UHGV virus genome: UHGV-0123126
DNA length: 39,300 nt
Strand: one strand, 5' to 3'
From: a virus
This document shows, piece after piece, positions 10,045 through 23,999 of the stretch. The number at the start of each line of letters is the position of its first letter. Positions within the stretch are counted from its first letter, which is position 1. The translations under genes were made by a program, and so were the position numbers. Below the pieces are notes generated by a model that saw nothing but the letters and a program-made list of their open reading frames with translations, was not told the origin of the DNA and made no database searches.

Positions 10045-10228
10045 AGCATCGTTGGTTTGCAAGACAGACCTTATGTAAGCAGTTTTAGTAAAGCAGTCTC
10101 AGTTCAGTGTTATCTTCTGATTTCCCTTCTTCGTGAGTCTCCTCCTTAAGTGCCTAAGTAAGTCCCAATCTATACAGATCAAATTCTCGCCGCACTATGT
10201 GGCTCACAAAATTAAGAAGGTAATATCT

Positions 10229-10444
10229 ATGTCTAATAAAATGACTGGTTTAGTAAAATGGTTTAACTCTGATAAAGGCTTTGGCTTTATTTCTCCTGCT
10301 GATGGCAGTAAAGATGTTTTTGTACATTTTTCGGCAATTCAGAGTAATAATTTCCGCACTTTGGAAGAAGGCCAGCAGGTCGAATTCTCTATCGAGAATG
10401 GGGCTAAAGGCCCAGCAGCAGCAAATGTCGTTGCTCTAAGCTGA
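10229..10444 (+). CDS. Cold-shock protein, CspA family (CspB/G/I-like), 71 aa
   Basis: [38 protein letters not shown]... carries the RNP1/RNP2 motifs of CspA-family proteins; the track ORF is extended upstream. Confidence 0.9.
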
Positions 10445-10720
10445 TTCAACGCTGATGATCCTCATTTCTACAATAACGAAGACGGTGTAAGCCTGAGTGG
10501 ATAGATTTGTAGGATTGTACAAGTTGAATAAATTAGCATGGTAAGGCCATGCTAATTAAATCGACACAACGGCCAGTTTATTCCATAAAAGTGAATTGCC
10601 CATTGTGGCGAAATGCGGGGTTGCCGCATGAATAGTCAAAGGCAGAAGCTAACTGCCGGCATGGCAAAACAAAGTGCGTAAGAGGAGTGACTTCCTCAAC
10701 AAGCGCCATAATTCTTTATA

Positions 10721-10749
10721 AACCCGCCAACAGGCGGGTTTTCTTTATT
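10721..10749. terminator. Hairpin AACCCGCC-AACA-GGCGGGTT plus T-rich tail, between csp and the polymerase 3' end
   Basis: Perfect 8-bp stem followed on plus by TTCTTTATT; directly abuts the polymerase stop. Confidence 0.45.
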
Positions 10750-13700
10750 ACTTATTTATTGTCTCCGCGATATCAGCCAGAATGGCCTCCAGTCGCTCTC
10801 CTTCTTCCGGTCGGAAGTACAGGATATTCGGGTTAAATCCGTAGAAGACGGTTGCATCAAGCTCTGGGAAGTACTCCTTACGACCAATCAGATCTGATGG
10901 TTTACTCTTATTGTTAAATAGTGCGGTTGAACGACTACCACACGTCAAAATGTAGGTTGGTCGTACAAGATTAATTTCTTCCCGCATAAAGTCTGTGAAC
11001 TGGCCTATCTCGTCTTTGGTATAGTCTTTCTCTTTGTCCTTAACCTTCTTACAAACACCCGTGACATAAAGATCGCCCATGCGCAGATCTCCAACTGTCA
11101 GTAGTTTTGCCTTAAAGTCGTCGTATCCGTTCTCCATGAAGTAGCCGGTACGAGCGTCATTGCCGTTCGCATTGTCCAGAATGATCATGATTTTGGGTTT
11201 AATACCAATAGTCGGGCGTATCAACTCCTCACCCAAGCCCATTTCAGCCGCCATACGTGTCATGAGTACGTTGATTTCGGCAGAACGCTTAGGATTCATT
11301 TCGAACGGACGTGATGCTTTAACAGCGTCAATGATGAGATTGCCCATCAGCTCAGCCTGGTCGCGCAGTCGTTCAGGATCAGTTGCTGGCAGACTGCCTG
11401 GCTCAATTGACGCAAAAGCCCCTACTTTATGAAGCGACTCGCGTACACGACTGTTACATGCACGCTTCTCGACCGCTTCATCGAATTGTGCCACTGACTC
11501 GAATTTGCCACCAACTTTCTCACGCGCACGCATAATTGCCTGACAACCATTTTCAGAACAGCCTTTCACAGCAGAGAATGGCGCATACAGTGCCTGACTG
11601 CCGTCTTCGAGTGTGCGGATCTCAATTCGGTTAGATGACACATTAACGTCTGGTGGCAATACGCGAATGCCATAGGTCAGCGCATCCTTCACCAGCCCCT
11701 GATGCTTATCCTCGCCCAGAATGGTGAGCGCAGCTGCGAAGAACTCAGCAGGGTAGTGCGTCTTTAGCCACATAGACTGATAACTGATTAAAGAATAAGA
11801 AACGGAGTGTGATTTATTGAACTGATAGGCTCCGTTTTTCTCAAATGCGGTCCAGATCTCCTTCGCTTTCATCTCTGATAGCCCTGGATGTGACGCTGTA
11901 ACGCGTACTGCGTTTATAGGTAGTTTTGCGCCGTGCTCAAGTGCCTCTTCGACAGTTTTCAGAGTTCCGTCTTCGCATTTAAAATGTTCCGCACGGTGAA
12001 TGCGCTGTGTAGTGCCATCTTCCAGCTCAACGTCTATCCAGCCAGCTTGAGCCTGAACGATGAACTTCTCGCCCATGCTCTTCATTTTTTCCATGTTCTT
12101 CTTACCGATTGCGGAACGCACAGCGTCAGCTTCAGCCATTGTGAAGCCGGCAAGCAATCGAGTCGCGTTCATCGTCTGTTCCTGATAGAGAATCACGCCA
12201 TTTGTTTCCGCGGTAAGTTCATCAAGAACGGGGTGTAATGATTCCGGCGTCATAAAGCCTTTGGCGACAGAAACATAGTCATCCAACATGCCTGATTGAA
12301 TTGGCCCCGGCCGGAAGAGCGCAGTTGTAGCGACGACCGTTTTAAAGCTCATTGGCTCAATTCCACCACCTAAATCTTTAAGCAGCTTGCGCATTGGGCC
12401 TGATTCAAGCTGGAAAACACCTTGAGTGTACCCAGCAGCAAAACCATCCAGCACCTTGCGATCTTCAAGAGAAATGGCATCAAGATTGATATCTTCACCT
12501 GTGTTCTCTTTTATGTAGCGTTTTGCACTATCGAGCAAATCGAGAGTTGCCAGGCCAAGCACGTCCAGCTTAATTAGGCCCATAGCCTCGCAGTAACGCT
12601 TGTCAAATGCGATACAACGCGCGTCACCACGGCGCTCAACCGGTGTACGTTCTGTCAGAGGAACACCTGCTACGATCATCCCTGCCGCATGTCTACCAAA
12701 GCCACGCATAAGGCTTTGTAACTTGCAGGCTGCATTGAATGCATCAGGATATTTTGTTGCGTATTTGTCGAGACTTGCCAGTTGTTCGCGCAGTTCTTCC
12801 AATGGAAGGCTATCATCCTCAGCGTTCTTCAGTTCTTTTGATACCGCCATATCTGCGGACTCCACACCATAAATACGAGCGGTGTCACGTAGTGCAGAGG
12901 CTGCGCCCAGGTAGGTGAAGTTCGGAATGCCTGCAACGTAATCTTCGCCGTAGCGTTCATTCAGATACTCGATCACCTCATGGCGACGTGCCTGGCTGAA
13001 GTCCAAATCCGCATCTGGCAAGTCGAGACGCTCAGGGTTGATGAAACGTTCAAACAGAAGACCGTGACGGATAGGGTCGACGTTGGTTATGCCTATGCAC
13101 CATGCCACCAAAGAGCCAGCGGAGGAACCACGACCAGGCCCGACAGGAATGCCAGTTTCACGGCTGTGATTCATCAGATCGCGTACCATCAGGAAGTAAC
13201 CACAAAATCCCAGGCGAGTAAGCGTGTCCATTTCGTACTTAAGTCGCTCAACATAAACCCTGTTCTCAGAAGCCGGTGGTGTGTATCCAAACTCTTTTGT
13301 GGTAAGACGTTTACGCAGCCCTGCAACAGCCAGTTTCATCAGCGTTGCAGGTTCGTCGTCTGCCATCTTGGGCAGTGCTGGTGGCAATTCATGCCAGCGC
13401 CATGTACAGGCTTCGATAATGGAGTCCTGCGTTGTTGAGGCCATTGCAGCTGTTACCGGCACATCCATGCGAACGGAGAAGGCTTTAAGCGCCTCAAGGA
13501 GATGGCGGCGACCATTGACGGCGTTATCTCGCTGGTGGGGTATACGCAGACGATGCGGCTGGTCGATTTTTATGTTGTTCGTAACCATGTGCGCAATGTC
13601 TTTAATGTCTGCATCGTCGATCGATTCGTAATAAGCGGGATAGAACGCTACTGGCTCTATTTTCAGTGCGCTGGCTACTTTCATCGCTCGGACGTTAATC

Positions 13701-14266
13701 TGGTCGTAGAATGGGGTAGGGTGCGGATAAACCACGCTATAGAAGTTGTCTTTCCCGCCCGCTGTAATCAGTGAGCTTATGATTTTTGCAAAATCGTTGC
13801 GTTGGAACACGCTACCGATGTCGGAAGTGAGCAGGATGATGTTGCCTTTGGCATATGTAGAAACCAACTGTTCGAGCGAGAGACGCGGTACAAAGTAGAA
13901 CTGTTCTCGTGTGTTGGCCACCGTCATTAGTTCGCAGATGTCGCGATATCCTTGCTCATTTTTAATTAGAGCGGTAAACGAGTAGTTACGTCCCCGCTCT
14001 AATGATTCCATACATCTCATAGATTCTTTAGCAAGTTTAGCCCGGTGCTCGTATGTGGGATCATCAACGATATTTAGTTTCACACCACAAATAACCGCCA
14101 TGTCGTCACCAGCGGCACGTTGTAGTGGAATAACACTCGCAATATTCATGCTATCTGCTGAAATTACAGCGGTGTAGCCAGCTTCTCTGGCAATCTTCAC
14201 CGCGTTTTCTGCTTTTAGAGCCGACTCCCCAAGTGAGAAGTCAGTTCGAACCATCAGTGCTTTCAT
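10748..14266 (-). CDS. dnaE: DNA polymerase III alpha-subunit-like replicative polymerase (DnaE family, N-terminal PHP domain)
   Basis: 1172-aa ORF with PHP-like N-terminus and overall DnaE-like length and architecture. Confidence 0.9.
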   Translation of the reverse strand: MKALMVRTDFSLGESALKAENAVKIAREAGYTAVISADSMNIASVIPLQRAAGDDMAVICGVKLNIVDDPTYEHRAKLAKESMRCMESLERGRNYSFTALIKNEQGYRDICELMTVANTREQFYFVPRLSLEQLVSTYAKGNIILLTSDIGSVFQRNDFAKIISSLITAGGKDNFYSVVYPHPTPFYDQINVRAMKVASALKIEPVAFYPAYYESIDDADIKDIAHMVTNNIKIDQPHRLRIPHQRDNAVNGRRHLLEALKAFSVRMDVPVTAAMASTTQDSIIEACTWRWHELPPALPKMADDEPATLMKLAVAGLRKRLTTKEFGYTPPASENRVYVERLKYEMDTLTRLGFCGYFLMVRDLMNHSRETGIPVGPGRGSSAGSLVAWCIGITNVDPIRHGLLFERFINPERLDLPDADLDFSQARRHEVIEYLNERYGEDYVAGIPNFTYLGAASALRDTARIYGVESADMAVSKELKNAEDDSLPLEELREQLASLDKYATKYPDAFNAACKLQSLMRGFGRHAAGMIVAGVPLTERTPVERRGDARCIAFDKRYCEAMGLIKLDVLGLATLDLLDSAKRYIKENTGEDINLDAISLEDRKVLDGFAAGYTQGVFQLESGPMRKLLKDLGGGIEPMSFKTVVATTALFRPGPIQSGMLDDYVSVAKGFMTPESLHPVLDELTAETNGVILYQEQTMNATRLLAGFTMAEADAVRSAIGKKNMEKMKSMGEKFIVQAQAGWIDVELEDGTTQRIHRAEHFKCEDGTLKTVEEALEHGAKLPINAVRVTASHPGLSEMKAKEIWTAFEKNGAYQFNKSHSVSYSLISYQSMWLKTHYPAEFFAAALTILGEDKHQGLVKDALTYGIRVLPPDVNVSSNRIEIRTLEDGSQALYAPFSAVKGCSENGCQAIMRAREKVGGKFESVAQFDEAVEKRACNSRVRESLHKVGAFASIEPGSLPATDPERLRDQAELMGNLIIDAVKASRPFEMNPKRSAEINVLMTRMAAEMGLGEELIRPTIGIKPKIMIILDNANGNDARTGYFMENGYDDFKAKLLTVGDLRMGDLYVTGVCKKVKDKEKDYTKDEIGQFTDFMREEINLVRPTYILTCGSRSTALFNNKSKPSDLIGRKEYFPELDATVFYGFNPNILYFRPEEGERLEAILADIAETINK

Positions 14267-15777: not shown

Positions 15778-17886
15778 TTACTTCAAAATGATACGAGATA
15801 GTTCAGTAACTACAGATGAACCAAGACTATCAACACTAGTTACCAGGGCATGATTTGCGTAAAATCTCTCCGGTGCATCAGTCATGATGCCAATTGCCAT
15901 CAAATCAATGTCAGTCTGCGTTTCAATTTGCTTCGTAACCGAACGCAAATGGGCGTCAAAACCTCTCCCAACAGCCCACGGCGCGCCATCACTCAGAACA
16001 AGCATGATCTTCCTGTCCTCCAAGCGACCGGAAAATAACGATGCAAGGCTGGCTATGCTTTCACCATCCACGTTATTAAGAAGTGGGAATGTGTAGCCTA
16101 CGCACCCCATACGTGAGCGAACTTCGCGAGAATTTGCTTTTTCATTCCAATTTTTGATGATAGGTAGCATTAAAGATTCAAAGCGAGAGAACTCATATTT
16201 GATAGCCTTAAGTTCTCCTGCTGCCATATGACTGCCAAATGTAGTGAAGCCGGTGATAATGTTGGGAACATTTATTCGATCAAGTGCATCGGCGATGGTA
16301 TATGCACTTGCAAGAGCTAGTTTTATCGTTTCGCCACTCATTGAACCCGATAAATCAATCACTTGTTGAACACAGGCGTTAACGGCTTTAGATTCTTCTT
16401 TTTTACGAAACACGCGATCATCATTCATTGTTAATCTGTAGATACTTGAACCATGAATGCGCCCCCGACGCTGGCCAGGTATAAACTGAACTCTGTTTCT
16501 GCTTGCTATTGCACGTTCCAGGTCTTTTGCCAGCGTCGACGAAACACCTGACGAAAGGTGCTTTTCAATATATTTGTCGAAGAGCTGGTTGCCTTCAGGA
16601 ACGATGCGATAACGGCTGATTGGATATCCACCTAAATCAATATCGGAGAATGTTTTAATAAGCCGTTTGATATGGGCTTCTGCCTGATCAATCGAGCCGA
16701 TGAAGTCGTATGAGCGATTGTATGGCCTGTATTCGCTTTTCGAGCTTTCTGTTAACTCGCTTTTAATCGTTTCGGATAGCGCATCTTCTGTCATGCCTCC
16801 GACTTCATCTTCCATGCTATCCAACTCCTCTAAAGCCTCTTCCAGACTCATTTTTGACGGAGTTGGAATGTCTGAAGAGCCGTCTTCTGTCGATTTTCTT
16901 TTTTCGTGGTCAGTGGTAAATGATTCTGACGCCGCGTTATCAGAAGCACCAGAATCTGATACCTCTTTATCATTTTCTGTATCATCGAATATTGTTTCTG
17001 ATGATTCAGAATTATCTGAATCATCACTGTCGTTATTATCATGTTTGTACTTACTGTGTGATTCTGATTTGATAGATTTGTGATTATCTAACGCTGAGGG
17101 TGTCTCATGATCTTCGTTGTCTTCATTGTTTTCTCCAGAGGCATCCGTCTGGTCAGCGTCTGAAGGATCGGAAGTTTTTCCCGGAGCTGACTCCTTACCT
17201 TTGCTTTCACTTTCAGTGTCTTTGAGGATCTTAGCTATGGTCGCAGCCACCTTTACACAATCCTCGGTGCAAGACATGTTACGCACGGCCACATCGATAC
17301 CATGTTCTTTTAATAATGAAATTGGTTTCTCAATGACAGGCCAATATTCATCCATGAAATCTACGAACGGTGCTTGGCCATCCCAGGCTCTTACAACCGG
17401 ACAGAGAAAGAAGTTTAGAAAAAGCGCGCGCTGATCTTTGCCACAATAAGCAATAGCCTCTGAAGCCTTTGTTTTAAAGACTTTTTCGATTATAAGGCGC
17501 TGAGTTGCCATCAGATTACGTCTTGTTCCGTTAAAGACCTGACCCATTTTTCGCTCGATGAACACGTCTTCTAAGGCATTCCATAGCGACCAGGAAGGAA
17601 CGCGTCCTTTTTCTCTCATTTTGTTGGACACACGAATATCGGTAAACAAAATGTGAGCAACCTCATGATCGAGAAATCCGCGCACAGCATTCATCAATGC
17701 CGGTGTTGCGTTATCCGGGATTGATGGGATGTTTACGAGAATTGGCTCTCCATCATCGTTATAGCGTACATAAGCGTCGTCCCCTCGTTCTGCAACAGGG
17801 ATGTTTTTACCTGAAAGGAGAGCGACTACTCGTTTTACACTGTCACGGAAGTCCTGAACCTCTTTGATGGAACGTTTTTTAGACAT
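15778..17886 (-). CDS. cobT: CobT-like von Willebrand factor A (vWA) domain protein with long acidic low-complexity linker
   Basis: 702 aa; MIDAS-like DLSGSMSGE; Ser/Asp/Glu-rich segment around residues 220-370; directly upstream of the AAA+ partner. Confidence 0.8.
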   Translation of the reverse strand: MSKKRSIKEVQDFRDSVKRVVALLSGKNIPVAERGDDAYVRYNDDGEPILVNIPSIPDNATPALMNAVRGFLDHEVAHILFTDIRVSNKMREKGRVPSWSLWNALEDVFIERKMGQVFNGTRRNLMATQRLIIEKVFKTKASEAIAYCGKDQRALFLNFFLCPVVRAWDGQAPFVDFMDEYWPVIEKPISLLKEHGIDVAVRNMSCTEDCVKVAATIAKILKDTESESKGKESAPGKTSDPSDADQTDASGENNEDNEDHETPSALDNHKSIKSESHSKYKHDNNDSDDSDNSESSETIFDDTENDKEVSDSGASDNAASESFTTDHEKRKSTEDGSSDIPTPSKMSLEEALEELDSMEDEVGGMTEDALSETIKSELTESSKSEYRPYNRSYDFIGSIDQAEAHIKRLIKTFSDIDLGGYPISRYRIVPEGNQLFDKYIEKHLSSGVSSTLAKDLERAIASRNRVQFIPGQRRGRIHGSSIYRLTMNDDRVFRKKEESKAVNACVQQVIDLSGSMSGETIKLALASAYTIADALDRINVPNIITGFTTFGSHMAAGELKAIKYEFSRFESLMLPIIKNWNEKANSREVRSRMGCVGYTFPLLNNVDGESIASLASLFSGRLEDRKIMLVLSDGAPWAVGRGFDAHLRSVTKQIETQTDIDLMAIGIMTDAPERFYANHALVTSVDSLGSSVVTELSRIILK

Positions 17887-18448: not shown

Positions 18449-18835
18449 ATGTCTGATAACAAGATTGAATTTATAGAAAGTCGCTACGCTGCTTTTATCG
18501 CAGGGTTGATTGAATCCTCACCTATGAGCCAGGCCCAGATAGCCAAAACAATTGGGTATAAAAACGCCAACAACCTTTCTTTAATTAAAAGCGGCAAAAT
18601 TCCTTTGCCTATCGATAAGGTTCGTCCGCTGGCGCTGGCACTGGGCATTGAGCCAAGTCGTCTTATGATGATGGTGCTGGAAGAACGCCAACCCGAACTC
18701 GCAGCATTTTTATACAAAGAAGGCACTGCTCCTCTTAACGAGGACGAAAAACAGGTTCTTGCTGCATATAACGAGCGATTCGGTAAAGAGAAAGGCGCAT
18801 CACAAAAGGTTGTTGAGGCCATAAAGTCTCTATGA
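18449..18835 (+). CDS. Helix-turn-helix (XRE-like) transcriptional regulator
   Basis: 128 aa; HTH segment SQAQIAKTIGYKNANNLSLIKSGK; divergent from the replication operon, convergent with the recombinase. Confidence 0.7.
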   Translation: MSDNKIEFIESRYAAFIAGLIESSPMSQAQIAKTIGYKNANNLSLIKSGKIPLPIDKVRPLALALGIEPSRLMMMVLEERQPELAAFLYKEGTAPLNEDEKQVLAAYNERFGKEKGASQKVVEAIKSL

Positions 18836-19933
18836 AAAATTTACACGAATAAGCTCTGTTGATAGACGATCTCCCTTAAATTTGTGGTCAATTTCGTCTA
18901 AATCCGGTTGCTCTACGATTGATGCGATGTACGTCGAGAAACTTTCTAAGGCGTCTCGCATCTCGTCCATATAATCGTGCCGGTCGTAGACCCGATCTAT
19001 CCCCTCAAGACTGTGGTTCATGATTTTACGTGATACCTCCTGGCTTATGCCTAATGCTGGGAAGTAACTACGCGCAGTACGGCGCAAATCTCGGGGTGTA
19101 AATGGCTCAAGCTCCATCAGTTCTGGTCGTTCCAGAATACGACGTAATGCCTGGGCTATTGCCACTTTAGACATAGGAAGGTCTTTCCCGATTTTTTTAT
19201 TCGAAGGCACGAGCCACTGGCTGTCTTTACCATATTCGAACAACTCTTCAATACAAGTGCGCATTAATGAGCTTAAAGGCAGAGAATGCTCACGGGCAGA
19301 TTTGTTCCTCTTGCCTTGATTCCAAACCCCACGCTTAAGATTGAACTCACTTTTTTTAGCCCGCAGTACTTCGTCAGGTCGTCTTGCGGATACAAGACAT
19401 AGCCTGGCCGCCCATTTTGTACCAGCGCACACATTGAAGTAGTCCCATATATTCCAGAACACCCATACCTCTGCGTCGGTCAGCTTCCGCTCGCGAGGTG
19501 TGGGCTTTGCGCCACCGGCAACTTTGTTAAGTGACATATCGTTTAACGGTGACACGTCTATCATCCCCTGGAAGGCGCACCAGCTAAGGAACTGCTTCAT
19601 CAGAGAGAAAACGCGGCGGCCCATAACAATTTTGCCATCCAGTATTAGTGGGTTGACCAGTTGGTTCACCATGAACCTATTAATGTCACTTACTTTTACA
19701 TCGGCAATGTGCGGCAAAACATGTATCAAAATACAATGAACAGCGATCTCTGGCCGACGTCTGGTTATCAGCAGAGATAAGCGAGTGAATAACATGAATG
19801 CGTCCGAGAATCTCATGTCATTGCTGACCTGGGAGATCATAACGGCCTGCATTTGAGATGCTCTTTCGAGATACTCTATCGCCTCTTTTGAGGTGTTCTC
19901 CGCAGCGCGTGCTCTGTCAAAGCTATTTTTCAT
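18830..19933 (-). CDS. Tyrosine recombinase / integrase family protein
   Basis: C-terminal catalytic region RDLRRTARSYF ... MNHSLEGIDRVYDRHDY (R..H..Y pattern); 367 aa. Confidence 0.8.
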   Translation of the reverse strand: MKNSFDRARAAENTSKEAIEYLERASQMQAVMISQVSNDMRFSDAFMLFTRLSLLITRRRPEIAVHCILIHVLPHIADVKVSDINRFMVNQLVNPLILDGKIVMGRRVFSLMKQFLSWCAFQGMIDVSPLNDMSLNKVAGGAKPTPRERKLTDAEVWVFWNIWDYFNVCAGTKWAARLCLVSARRPDEVLRAKKSEFNLKRGVWNQGKRNKSAREHSLPLSSLMRTCIEELFEYGKDSQWLVPSNKKIGKDLPMSKVAIAQALRRILERPELMELEPFTPRDLRRTARSYFPALGISQEVSRKIMNHSLEGIDRVYDRHDYMDEMRDALESFSTYIASIVEQPDLDEIDHKFKGDRLSTELIRVNFS

Positions 19934-19959: not shown

Positions 19960-19979
19960 CACTGTATAAGTAAACAGTA
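19960..19979. promoter_or_regulatory. LexA-box-like site CACTGTATAAGTAAACAGTA (CTGT-N8-ACAG)
   Basis: Fits CTGT-N8-ACAG with A/T-rich spacer; about 30 bp upstream of the recombinase start. Confidence 0.4.
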
Positions 19980-20031
19980 TATTAGGCATAGATTCTTATA
20001 GGATCAAGAGTAAAAGTAACTCATTTTCAGC

Positions 20032-20064
20032 AATGATTCCATACATAGTAGGTATGGAATCATT
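20032..20064. repeat. Perfect 13-bp inverted repeat AATGATTCCATAC-(7 bp)-GTATGGAATCATT; lox/dif-like candidate core site
   Basis: 13-bp arms with 7-bp spacer, about 100 bp upstream of the tyrosine recombinase gene. Confidence 0.45.
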
Positions 20065-20143
20065 TTGACGTTGTTTTTTGAATTTTAAGGGAAACGGGAG
20101 TGAGTTTGGTGGGAATAAAAACGGCTCCTGTGAGCCGTTAAAA

Positions 20144-20389
20144 TCAGAGGGTGCTGACGTATGCAGCCAGTTCTGTGTATCCGCCAATCGGTTGGCCATC
20201 GATCAGCACTTGGGGGATAGTCTCTACCGGTTTACCAACAATTTCACTTAGTTTTTCCTTGTCGATACCGGCAGTGGTGATGTCGATGTACTCATAATCA
20301 CCGTAGCCATGTCCCTTTAGTTGCTTCGCCAGCTCGACCGCACGTTTGCAGTATGAGCAGTTATCTCGTCCGTAGATAGTGATCGTCAT
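20144..20389 (-). CDS. Glutaredoxin-like protein (CxxC thioredoxin fold)
   Basis: MTITIYGRDNCSYCKRAVELAK...; GAGG SD before the internal ATG; track ORF extended upstream. Confidence 0.75.
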   Translation of the reverse strand: MTITIYGRDNCSYCKRAVELAKQLKGHGYGDYEYIDITTAGIDKEKLSEIVGKPVETIPQVLIDGQPIGGYTELAAYVSTL

Positions 20390-20563
20390 TGTTACCTCAT
20401 AGAATTGATATGCAACTTTACTTACAAAGAAGATAGGTGTGTGCATACTTATCTTTACAGTCTGCATTATAAAGCTATTAAAGCCTCGATCAATCTATTA
20501 ATTAAGGCATTGTTTGGTTAACATTAGCCTAATATTTTATAGTTAGTAGAGTGAAATACATAC

Positions 20564-21826
20564 ATGCCTTTTTTAATTTTCATTATTATACTACTGCTCA
20601 CCGTCATTTTTTGGGATTGGGTTGTTTTAAATGGTCAAACTGTTGGAACATTGGCTACAGCATTTGCTTTTATAGCAACAGCATGGAATGCCTACGAAGC
20701 GAGAAAAAGTGCAAAAGCAGCTTTTTCAGCCCTTCAATTAACAACTGAATCATTGTTCGAAATGCGAAAGAGTGCATTTAAACAATGGTTTGATTCCTTA
20801 TTAAATCAACATGATGAGTTATGTCTTCTTGCAAAACAAATTATCGATAAACACAAAATTAATTTAAACAGCGATGAGTTACATAGACTATATTATCCAT
20901 TGGTAAGACAGCATGAGGTAATACAGTATGTGAAGCATATTATTAATATATTTGAGTATGTGGATGGTTCATTTTATATTGATGGGGAATGTCTCAAGGA
21001 AAAAAGAGCGTATGTGTCACAATTAATTTTTAAAATCCCACCTCAGATGAAGTTGATCATTGCTATCTTTGGATTAAAAATCGATTATTGTGAACATATT
21101 AATTCGGAAAAACTGTGTTGTTTATTGAATAAATATGATTTTTTCAATGATGAAATATTTTTTGATGATGCTTATTCAAATATGCCTTATCTGGATACAT
21201 TCATAAACCTTAGATTCAACAAAATATTCAAATCTCGAATGATAAATTATTTTGATAATATCATTAAAAGTTATTATGTTCCATCGGACGTTAAAAGGGA
21301 CTGGATGTTTCGACACCCAAAGCTCGTACCGTCGGTTCTTATGAATTATAAAACTCCTTGTTCTCCTATAATTAATGATTACTTTGAGAAGTTGCCTTTA
21401 CATGTAAGAAACTACTTTGAGGAACTACTTAAAACCGCGAATGATAGAGTTACTCATTTTGACGTTTACATCCCACGCCTTATTGGTTGTTCAATCGTGC
21501 AACATTACGAAGATGTGCCTTCCGAAAAAAACAGGTTAAATGACAGGAATGATGTAATAGCTATGGCTGAAGATTACATCGAGAAAAGAAAATCTAATCA
21601 ACTAGATTACATACTTGAAGATATATACTTTAAGAGTGACGAAGATATAATCCCAGGCCACCATTTAATTGTGGCATTTGATGACTATGAATATAAATTA
21701 GCACTAATTAAGATAAATGAAAATAAAGATAACGATAATCTTTTAAATCGAATTTATACTGAATCCAGTAGCATGGTTAATGAATATAAGCGCGAAATAT
21801 TAAAATTGGGCGACTATGCAAAGTAA
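20564..21826 (+). CDS. AT-rich membrane-anchored protein of unknown function (two N-terminal TM helices, about 370-aa cytoplasmic domain); candidate abortive-infection/defence protein
   Basis: 420-aa ORF with GC content clearly lower than flanking DNA; only long plus-strand gene here; own terminator. Confidence 0.65.
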   Translation: MPFLIFIIILLLTVIFWDWVVLNGQTVGTLATAFAFIATAWNAYEARKSAKAAFSALQLTTESLFEMRKSAFKQWFDSLLNQHDELCLLAKQIIDKHKINLNSDELHRLYYPLVRQHEVIQYVKHIINIFEYVDGSFYIDGECLKEKRAYVSQLIFKIPPQMKLIIAIFGLKIDYCEHINSEKLCCLLNKYDFFNDEIFFDDAYSNMPYLDTFINLRFNKIFKSRMINYFDNIIKSYYVPSDVKRDWMFRHPKLVPSVLMNYKTPCSPIINDYFEKLPLHVRNYFEELLKTANDRVTHFDVYIPRLIGCSIVQHYEDVPSEKNRLNDRNDVIAMAEDYIEKRKSNQLDYILEDIYFKSDEDIIPGHHLIVAFDDYEYKLALIKINENKDNDNLLNRIYTESSSMVNEYKREILKLGDYAK

Positions 21827-21844
21827 ATTGCACTGTTCAACAAA

Positions 21845-21871
21845 AAAGGGGCCGAAGCCCCTTTGAATTTT
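21845..21871 (+). terminator. Rho-independent terminator (AAAGGGGC-CGAA-GCCCCTTT)
   Basis: GC-rich hairpin then TTTGAATTTT, 20 nt after the AT-rich gene stop. Confidence 0.55.
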
Positions 21872-21938
21872 GCGCTGAAAAAAGTGTTGCTAGGATGTTA
21901 GCAAGCTATGGTTAAGAACGTCTGCCGTAATTATCTAT

Positions 21939-22016
21939 CACAGCGTTGAGCGGTCTGGTTTATGTTAGCGGAGTCTTAATCGAGTTGATTAAAAGGCCAA
22001 ACCGCTCAACGCTGTG
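21939..22016. repeat. 16-bp perfect inverted repeat CACAGCGTTGAGCGGT / ACCGCTCAACGCTGTG, 46-bp spacer with nested palindrome
   Basis: Arms at 21939..21954 and 22001..22016; directly abuts the 3' end of tRNA-Ser. Confidence 0.6.
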
Positions 22017-22018
22017 TC

Positions 22019-22105
22019 TGGCGGAGAGTAATGGAATCGAACCATCATCGTTTGCACAATGGGACGGTTTTCAAGACCGCTTGAGCACCATGCTCCCTAC
22101 TCTCC
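22019..22105 (-). tRNA. tRNA-Ser (anticodon UGA), class II with long variable arm, CCA encoded
   Basis: Hand-folded: acceptor GGAGAGT/ACTCTCC, anticodon loop CTTGAAA, T-loop TTCGATT, discriminator G + CCA. Confidence 0.6.
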
Positions 22106-22322
22106 AATTGTTGTGGTTACCGGTACTGATCTCCGGCTTAGCGACCCCGGCTACTGACTGCATTGCAGTGTGTGAACTCGCCTCGTGTGTCGCTGGGGCA
22201 TTTCTTTCCGCGCATCAGTCTGCGCATCAACCACAACGAAAAGAGCACTGTATGACGTTTGCACGGACTTACGCTTAAAACAGGGCAGTCTCGGCGGTTT
22301 TCAATGCTCTTTCCTGTTGTGT

Positions 22323-22398
22323 TGGTGCCGGTTAACGGACTCGAACCGCTGACATCCTGCTTACAAGGCAGGCGCTCTACCAACTGAGCTAAACCGGC
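22323..22398 (-). tRNA. tRNA-Thr (anticodon UGU), CCA encoded
   Basis: Hand-folded: acceptor GCCGGTT/AACCGGC, D-arm GCTC..GAGC, anticodon stem CCTGC/GCAGG with loop CTTGTAA, T-loop TTCGAGT. Confidence 0.8.
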
Positions 22399-22402
22399 AA
22401 TT

Positions 22403-22489
22403 TGGTGGGGAGTGATGGAGTCGAACCACCCGAGTCGCCATGACAGTAGATTTACAGTCTACACCGCTACCTCTACGGACTAACTCCCC
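22403..22489 (-). tRNA. tRNA-Tyr (anticodon GUA), long variable arm, CCA encoded
   Basis: Hand-folded: acceptor GGGGAGT/ACTCCCC, anticodon stem GTAGA/TCTAC with loop CTGTAAA, T-loop TTCGACT. Confidence 0.8.
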
Positions 22490-22494
22490 TAAAT

Positions 22495-22569
22495 TGGCGA
22501 TGGTGGGTGGATTCGAACCACCGACCAGTTGGTTAACAGCCAACTGCTCTACCGCTGAGCTACACCATC
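22495..22569 (-). tRNA. tRNA-Asn (anticodon GUU), CCA encoded
   Basis: Hand-folded: acceptor GATGGTG/CACCATC, anticodon stem GTTGG/CCAAC with loop CTGTTAA, T-arm GGTGG-TTCGAAT-CCACC. Confidence 0.8.
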
Positions 22570-22835
22570 AATTCAGCACTGCCAGTATTTATTACTCAAC
22601 AGTGCCAATCGCGACGGTTTAGTTTCTGCCAGGAAACGCACCGCTACTTGCACTTTTCGTTAGTGCCAGACGCTTTCGACTTCGCTCAATAGTAGAAGGC
22701 AAAATCTTTAAATAGATGATGTTTCTGAGGACAGCACCTACTTTGTAATTTATACAATGTGATGTATGGAATAATTTGTTGTGAAAACAGGCACCAATGG
22801 CAACAGTGGTTAAACCTACACAACAATCCCGTCTT

Positions 22836-23638: not shown

Positions 23639-23787
23639 TTTTTCACCTTTGTTTCATGAACTACCCGATACACACGCTTTCCGATGCACAGTGTTTTGGT
23701 TTTAAGTTCCTGCTTAATTAAATCACGACAGATGCCGAAGCCGATAAGGAAGCCACCCATAAAAGCTAATGAGATGTATGGAATCAT
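23635..23787 (-). CDS. Small membrane protein (50 aa), not in ORF track
   Basis: Own translation MIPYISLAFMGGFLIGFGICRDLIKQELKTKTLCIGKRVYRVVHETKVKK; ATGA overlaps at both ends. Confidence 0.4.
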   Translation of the reverse strand: MIPYISLAFMGGFLIGFGICRDLIKQELKTKTLCIGKRVYRVVHETKVKK

Positions 23788-23999
23788 TTTAACACTCCTG
23801 ATTCTACTAATTGCTGTAGCAATACTTTCCCTTTATCAGTTAACTGGTAGTTGGCCGAACACCACGTTTCAGAAACGTTTGCAACCAACCCTAAACGCTC
23901 TAACTTAGCTCGCGTTTTAGGCTTCCAGTACTCAGGGAACTCCGGCCACTTACTGATTTCATGAAGCGTTTCCTTCTCCCGTTTACTTAATACGATCAT
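23784..23999 (-). CDS. Hypothetical small protein (71 aa)
   Basis: Coupled ORF in the post-ligase operon. Confidence 0.5.
   Translation of the reverse strand: MIVLSKREKETLHEISKWPEFPEYWKPKTRAKLERLGLVANVSETWCSANYQLTDKGKVLLQQLVESGVLK

Follow-up and report, generated by a model that had tools for sequence, protein, structure and literature searches.

A palindromic site upstream of the tyrosine recombinase gene in an SSU5/pHCM2/pMT1-type phage-plasmid as the probable core site of that recombinase

A perfect palindromic site, designated here as P, is situated immediately upstream of a tyrosine recombinase gene in a stretch of viral DNA of 39,300 nucleotides (UHGV-0123126), which is named below, at its full length, the window. 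In our opinion, the adjacent recombinase uses P as its core (crossover) site, which likely serves dimer resolution on a low-copy phage-plasmid; comparison of related sequences gives this reading a probability of about 0.65. As in simple core sites of the lox/FRT/dif type, P has inverted arms, a spacer of fixed length and variable sequence and, nearby, a cognate recombinase that tracks the arms. About 190 related loci back the pairing of the gene with the palindrome, and the two probably form a cognate pair, a previously undescribed one of a familiar kind. Site P is undescribed in the papers on SSU5 phage-plasmids, where tyrosine recombinases are mentioned in general terms only, and the arm strings gave only chance matches to primers in searchable papers.

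The window is 99.7% identical to the Escherichia coli plasmid NZ_CP104844.1 and 97.8% identical to the phage-plasmid Cyrano. Judged by these identities, it is an E. coli phage-plasmid of the SSU5/pHCM2/pMT1 type, and the phage-plasmid nature assumed in a preliminary description of this DNA is thereby supported. P is surrounded by the genes of dnaE, an AAA ATPase, CobT, an XRE-type HTH protein and the recombinase, by grxA with its terminator and by a tRNA cluster. The features nearest to P are as follows.

18449–18835, plus strand: gene of an HTH (XRE-type) regulator, convergent with the recombinase gene; a rival candidate for the binder of P
18830–19933, minus strand: tyrosine recombinase gene, 367 aa, with Pfam domains Phage_integrase and Phage_int_M; presumed cognate enzyme
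19979–20007, minus strand: candidate recombinase promoter, –35 element TTGATC (20007–20002), 17-nt spacer, –10 element TAATAT (19984–19979)
20032–20064, no strand assigned: candidate palindromic core site P, AATGATTCCATAC-ATAGTAG-GTATGGAATCATT, consisting of the left arm (20032–20044), a 7-bp spacer (20045–20051, ATAGTAG) and the right arm (20052–20064)
20074–20088, plus strand: distal box, +10 to +24 past the right arm, present in the window in a weaker version, TTTTTTGAATTTTAA
20120–20139, minus strand: intrinsic terminator of grxA, found by the terminator scan

The arms of P form a perfect 13-nt inverted repeat around a 7-nt spacer, and the letters of the window confirm the 13-7-13 palindrome at 20032–20064 that was noticed earlier. 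The geometry of a recombinase core site attributed to it at that time was borne out as well, and the distance to the recombinase start (19933), given as about 100 bp, was measured as 98 nt from the start of P to the ATG, the site lying upstream of the gene. When P is considered as 16-nt arms around a central G, 15 of 16 positions match. Folding of the site as single-stranded DNA gave z = –7.5 relative to shuffles. By our own arithmetic, about 0.01 perfect 13-nt inverted repeats with a short spacer are expected by chance per 39 kb. Nevertheless, the palindrome alone is weak and non-decisive evidence, because several more perfect inverted repeats, of 11–12 nt, are present in the window; the strong evidence for P, drawn from the alignment of relatives, is comparative. 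One of the repeats in the window, a perfect 12-nt one (TGATGATTCAGA-nnnn-TCTGAATCATCA) inside the CobT gene at 16999–17026, has ATGATTC in common with the P arm and TCTGA in common with the distal box, which may be a matter of chance.

The main argument is the constancy with which site and gene occur together. Comparison of genomes and viral contigs covered 76 loci, and P with unchanged arms was found in all those whose recombinase is at least 84% identical, with the single exception of locus L078, from which P is missing along with the 5′ part of the recombinase gene. About 1.2 kb of foreign DNA (2618–3804 of L078, in window orientation) replaces there the recombinase 5′ end, P, grxA and an ORF of 420 aa. 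Every intact homologue is accompanied by a palindrome with a 7-nt spacer 19–142 nt upstream of the gene. Loss of the site from relatives that keep the recombinase had been named in advance as an observation that would speak against the proposal; the relatives were checked in this respect, and each intact homologue has the palindrome. Scanning of 241 million metagenome records for the arm-N7-arm pattern gave 46 loci, in 45 of which the gene is 44–100 nt away, while the stored stretch of the remaining one is too short to reveal a gene; thus, no full site apart from the recombinase gene was found in these records.

The arms change together with the protein. Arms of class I, TGATTCCATAC, belong to proteins at least 55% identical and are invariant in all class-I relatives. 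Class II arms, TGACTCCAGAC, were found at 13 loci, whose proteins are 44–50% identical; their form (T)GTGACTCCAGAC occurs in Pantoea, Providencia, Rahnella, Erwinia, Xenorhabdus and seven viral contigs. As a scan of viral contigs with a profile of the full alignment returned mostly close relatives, an alignment of class II only was then used. The site of Photorhabdus has a mixed form of the arms, non-complementary at two positions, and each arm still fits the half-site consensus, which favours half-sites for a protein over a hairpin. The copies from Pantoea, Rahnella and Erwinia are located on plasmid-type contigs of 0.4–0.7 Mb among ordinary metabolic genes, and neither phage genes nor the adjacent XRE gene were found around them, which makes the HTH protein a less probable binder. 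Site and adjacent recombinase, paired in the preliminary description on the grounds of proximity, have therefore turned out to be strictly coupled, with arms that co-vary with the protein.

The recombinase itself retains catalytic residues. Among 40 homologues, R185, R284/R285 and Y316/Y321 never vary, and K211 and H307 hardly do; Arg (R281; RDLRR) takes the place of the first His of HxxR in nearly all family members (about 19091–19093 of the window, minus strand). The AlphaFold (AF2) model has a pLDDT of 86; its residues 1–125 are all helical, and a beta-sheet arm-binding domain is absent from it. The Pfam arm-binding domains PF13356 and PF09003 gave no match in the protein, and PF13356 is present in its distant relatives (26–34% identity). 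The best matches by Foldseek are the core-binding and catalytic domains of lambda Int (residues 75–356, TM 0.57–0.74, E 1e-7), followed by Tn1549 Int, Xer, XerH and IntI; SroF, a recombinase-fold repressor related to MrpR, is also among the fold matches, and Cre chains rank 38th or lower in the list, with E of 0.018 or worse. A sequence search of the PDB gave no match at E < 0.01. The closest sequence family is that of the P4-type (CP4-57) integrases, with a weak NF007246 match and DLRRT...Y.DR motifs. According to the model, the recombinase is lambda/P4-like in fold, not Cre-like, and devoid of an arm-binding domain; from these fold and sequence matches it would therefore work like a simple recombinase at a simple site, outside the Cre family.

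The location of the pair agrees with a function in plasmid maintenance. Gene and site were found in 252 of 5,426 complete E. coli genomes, and all 255 copies are on plasmids, none (0/255) being chromosomal. Contigs far longer than the element have the same neighbourhood around the recombinase gene, and P is intact in larger cointegrate plasmids. The annotation of the relative, which is incomplete, lists no other site-specific recombinase, and no Xer-type (cer/dif-like) site was found on the replicon, the best Xer-like matches having at least 5 mismatches. The cargo junction at the edge of P, the plasmid-only copies and the lack of an Xer site together favour multimer resolution and a crossover hotspot over an attachment core. 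Multimer resolution is thus most likely the most economical role for P on the present sequence data, with integration disfavoured. Of the two functions suggested at the outset, dimer resolution fits the plasmid-only family, the junctions at the site edges and the missing Xer site, and the attachment core loses ground, no E. coli copy being chromosomal (0/255) and the full site never standing apart from the gene.

The junctions mentioned were examined in 534 pairs of loci, chosen so that the left flanks are at least 95% identical and the right flanks unrelated. Identity in these pairs is 62–100% up to the left arm and about 25%, that is, at the chance level, at +1 to +9 past the right arm; the unrelated cargo DNA starts exactly at the outer edge of P. 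Among loci with 98–100% identical recombinases, at least six unrelated cargo flanks abut P. A replacement on the other side was found in L067: compared with eight relatives, a patch of 1.05 kb over most of the recombinase gene and its promoter (10150–11197, in window orientation) is replaced at 72–89% identity and stops 2–3 nt before the left arm, and identity to the right is 98–100%; this is a single event. Related elements that cross over at P would be expected to leave such a pattern at its edges. This evidence is indirect; the pattern is also explicable if P is the last conserved element before the cargo region.

The region on the right, 20065–22760 of the window, is hypervariable cargo between P and the region of the tRNA genes and S2 (see below), and it is 1.2 to 6.7 kb long in relatives. 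Its contents in relatives include grxA, PhoH, toxin genes and fimbria-like genes, as well as ISEcp1-blaCTX-M in NZ_CP104844.1. In Cyrano lysogens, according to the LF82 study, the first cargo gene beside P is expressed 723-fold above background. The tRNA cluster (22019–22569, minus strand) consists of four genes, Ser-tga, Thr-tgt, Tyr-gta and Asn-gtt, and that of Cyrano is without the Tyr gene; these tRNAs were the only matches of the Rfam search.

The spacer has a length of 7 nt in every locus, and its sequence is diverse, with more than 15 variants in class I and 12 in class II (ATAGTAG, TTAATAG, CTTACAA, CTACCAA, CTAAAGA, TTACTAG, TATATAA and TTACATA are examples). By our own reading of the spacer lists, many of them fit nTAnTAn and, once oriented, TTnnTAG. 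Exact reverse-complement spacers were found between close relatives at least four times (L006 vs L045; L012/L075 vs L009; L139 vs L140; L224 vs L225). Particularly, L045 and PhiR41_1 are identical in both flanks and differ by ATAGTAG as opposed to CTACTAT; TAATTAC is opposed to GTAATTA in L224 and L225; and a flip between TTAATAG and CTATTAA is present once within class I and once between the sites of Rahnella and Erwinia. These alignments indicate recurrent local flipping of the spacer between perfect arms, and template switching at the hairpin is its likely cause. As the arms are identical, the flip would be neutral for a resolution site.

On the gene side, P sits 24 nt upstream of the –35 element of the candidate promoter. 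The latter was read by eye; with 8 of 12 consensus positions it is below the threshold of the promoter scan and was not listed by it. TTGATC or a close variant is present at the same position in diverged lineages, and we take TTGATC-17-TAATAT as the putative recombinase promoter. With only 24 nt between this promoter and P, autoregulation of the recombinase is therefore possible. On the cargo side, the predicted grxA terminator insulates P and the recombinase promoter from read-through. The 3′ ends of the HTH gene (plus strand) and the recombinase gene (minus strand) overlap by 6 nt (18830–18835), and this convergent overlapping arrangement is kept in all phage-plasmid relatives. CYRAN_45, the Cyrano orthologue of the HTH gene, was treated as the lysogeny repressor in the LF82 study.

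Past the unrelated nucleotides that adjoin the right arm, a further common element appears on the cargo side. Identity between otherwise unrelated right flanks climbs to 50–72% at +10 to +23, and in many relatives the distal box is a T-run with AAWTCTGA after it. Of 45 non-redundant flank classes, 18 have a WTCTG that begins at +12 to +24, in 17 of them at +18 or +19, compared with 1 of 45 classes on the gene side and with a mean of 1.3 and a maximum of 6 in shuffles. Class-II and megaplasmid loci have the box as well. When inspected by eye, this element could not be matched consistently to a promoter, an IHF site or an ARG box.

The arm of P is not unique in the window: its 13-mer recurs exactly at 14001 (plus strand) and 23776–23788 (minus strand) and with one mismatch at 22764–22776 (minus strand). 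These copies belong to three half-sites, S1–S3, each consisting of the P arm plus ATC (consensus AATGATTCCATACATC) with the second arm absent; a degenerate copy, S0, is listed with them.

14001–14016, plus strand: half-site S1, AATGATTCCATACATC, inside dnaE at about codons 83–88, pointing toward P
19315–19327, plus strand: degenerate copy S0, cTTGATTCCAAAC, inside the recombinase gene
22761–22776, minus strand: half-site S2, AATTATTCCATACATC, located between genes upstream of the tRNA cluster and directed toward P; its copy in the window has one mismatch
23773–23788, minus strand: half-site S3, AATGATTCCATACATC, overlapping the start codon of an ORF of 50 aa (MIPYI), pointing toward P

Two of S1–S3 are inside coding sequences, in different frames and on different strands. 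On a complete 112-kb relative, the 15-mer AATGATTCCATACAT occurs five times at no more than one mismatch and in none of 20 shuffles; all five copies cluster in a segment of about 13 kb that surrounds the recombinase gene, the rest of the replicon being free of them. Among 44 distinct sequences, no invariant run in the first 900 nt of dnaE is as long as S1 (14 nt, compared with 11 nt for the second longest), and the invariance of S1 covers synonymous positions too. S2 is exact in most relatives, and the half-sites, S3 included, are kept down to 60% recombinase identity. Single half-sites were found only in the lineage with TGATTCCATAC arms and are missing from class II; therefore, the gene together with the palindrome is the ancient unit. 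No sigma-70-like promoters were predicted at S1, S2 or S3. The ORF at S3 is that of a small membrane protein.

Some other interpretations of these copies were rejected. S0 is probably a coding coincidence, as it overlaps W-N-Q-G codons whose synonymous sites vary between lineages. S2 was tried as the right-hand boundary of a cassette and rejected, more than 110 nt on its P-proximal side being conserved; this non-coding stretch beside S2 (22600–22760; ttagtgccagacg...tcgacttcgctcaatag...) is kept across diverged lineages and matches no Rfam family. Neither inversions nor deletions between motif copies were found among 129 loci, and there was no minus-strand HSP of at least 150 nt in these oriented loci over 12–26 kb of the window. 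A shufflon-like reading was dropped, since S1 and S3, identical over 20 nt in the window, are not so in other lineages and inversions are missing.

Binding, cleavage positions and the resolution role at P, together with promoter autoregulation, are what we infer from these comparisons. One recombinase monomer would bind each 13-bp arm, the two strands would be cleaved where the arms border on the 7-bp spacer, and exchange between two P sites would proceed via a Holliday junction. Dimers that arise by homologous recombination would in this way be converted to monomers on the low-copy phage-plasmid, and as a side effect P would become a hotspot for the exchange of its flanking DNA, left or right, between related elements. 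With identical arms, polarity would come from the spacer only, so the spacer could drift or flip harmlessly if all copies in a cell are alike. Some data are at variance with this scheme. R281 stands in place of the first His of HxxR, which may affect catalysis. In structure the recombinase is nearest to heterobivalent integrases; these as a rule require arm sites, and the distal box could represent one. A simple resolution system neither needs nor explains the conserved S1–S3, and rearrangements between motif copies, whether inversion or deletion, are absent from the 129 loci.

It is possible, and we propose this tentatively, that the recombinase has two roles, recombining at P and occupying S1–S3 and the distal box as a regulator or architectural protein of the replication and cargo region, P being then the point where related phage-plasmids exchange cargo modules. 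If true, such a protein would be a catalytically active intermediate between ordinary recombinases and repressors of the MrpR type. Further in this direction is an unlikely reading in which P and the half-sites are operators and the recombinase-fold protein is mainly a transcription factor for its own promoter and the genes of the replication module, recombination being absent or incidental. The position of P 24 nt upstream of the candidate promoter, the three conserved isolated half-sites over 10 kb with S1 constrained at the DNA level, and the presence of SroF among the fold matches are in line with it, as is the precedent of MrpR, a recombinase-fold repressor acting on a dispersed 15-bp element (PMC10516654); moreover, integrases can repress their own synthesis (PMC10516654). 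However, the catalytic residues are conserved family-wide, unlike in MrpR, and class II keeps the unit of gene and palindrome without any half-sites. S1, S2 and S3 lack predicted sigma-70-like promoters, and the centre of P is about 75 bp upstream of the putative transcription start, with no overlap of the core promoter. Finally, two full binding elements that are always 7 bp apart make up precisely a substrate for recombination.

The remaining explanations are all of low probability. The overlap region of lambda is 7 bp, as is the spacer of P, the protein is annotated as an integrase and its nearest relatives in sequence and fold are integrases of the P4 and lambda types, so that P could be the attachment core (attP) for integration into the chromosome or another replicon. 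This is very unlikely in view of the absence of chromosomal copies (0/255 in 5,426 complete E. coli genomes) and of full sites away from the gene; besides, long contigs show the same neighbourhood, cointegrate plasmids keep P intact, and no arm-binding domain was found. Hardly better is the idea that the XRE-type HTH repressor encoded nearby, or a host factor, uses P as its operator, the closeness of P to the recombinase gene being only regulatory: every phage-plasmid locus has the HTH gene as a neighbour, and this gene is expressed in lysogens, but the pair of recombinase gene and palindrome exists on megaplasmids that have no such HTH gene, and the arm sequence follows the recombinase clade. 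In addition, 13-bp half-sites with centres 20 bp apart appear large for an XRE dimer. The least probable is a nucleic-acid hairpin, that is, a terminator or a signal of processing, replication or packaging. The predicted hairpin is stable, and the arm change from class I to class II keeps complementarity, but there is no T-run after the stem and the terminator scan made no call at P. Moreover, only two arm sequences occur across very wide divergence, which is not free compensatory drift, the Photorhabdus site is unpaired at two positions, and isolated half-sites are unable to form a hairpin.

The favoured reading of P, a core site for resolution, may be compared with known systems. Cre/loxP resolves dimers and is a crossover hotspot, to which the name lox goes back. 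The likeness is evident, as P1 is also a phage-plasmid whose tyrosine recombinase gene adjoins a site built of perfect inverted 13-bp arms on both sides of a short, asymmetric spacer. Unlike loxP, the site studied has the geometry 13-7-13 in every locus, not 13-8-13, its recombinase is not Cre-like by the PDB sequence search or Foldseek, and loxP has no counterpart to the half-sites and the distal box. The comparison with Cre/loxP made in the preliminary description thus holds as an analogy only, Cre being a weak fold match and the spacer being 7 bp, not 8 (the role of Cre/loxP in P1 is cited in PMC7969092).

The lambda Int and P4-type (CP4-57) integrases are the closest family in fold and sequence and have a 7-bp overlap, but the present recombinase is without the N-terminal arm-binding domain, the arms of P are long and perfect whereas attP core sites are short and imperfect, and no integrated forms (attL/attR) were found, 0 of 255 copies being chromosomal. 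Sites of the Rci/sfx shufflon of R64 have only one conserved arm and part of the spacer in common. They resemble the present system in the 7-bp spacer and in the sharing of one arm, as in S1–S3, and differ from it in that no inversions occur among 129 loci here, the spacers of S1–S3 are not kept alike across lineages, and one half-site is inside the essential-looking dnaE. With XerCD at dif/cer/psi the system shares presumed multimer resolution, tyrosine recombinases and two arms with a short spacer; unlike XerCD, the recombinase is plasmid-encoded, and the arms of P are unrelated to Xer arms. MrpR of the Bacillus phage SPbeta is a recombinase-fold protein with a dispersed motif of about 15 bp, SPBRE (PMC10516654). 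The recognition motif found here is dispersed too, in five copies, but MrpR has lost most catalytic residues, which this recombinase keeps, and one full palindromic site is accompanied here by only three half-sites.

Phage-plasmids of the SSU5/pHCM2/pMT1 type are common in Enterobacterales, and their maintenance functions have been barely studied. Resistance genes are carried in the variable region that starts at P; ISEcp1-blaCTX-M of the closest relative is an example. In view of the conserved half-sites, one may ask if gene regulation is a further function of active recombinases. The family comprises at least two specificities of natural origin, with TGATTCCATAC and TGACTCCAGAC arms, and many spacer variants; if active, they may provide orthogonal recombinase-target pairs for genome engineering. 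A likely resolution site together with its enzyme gives a handle on plasmid stability and on the exchange of the cargo region in these elements.
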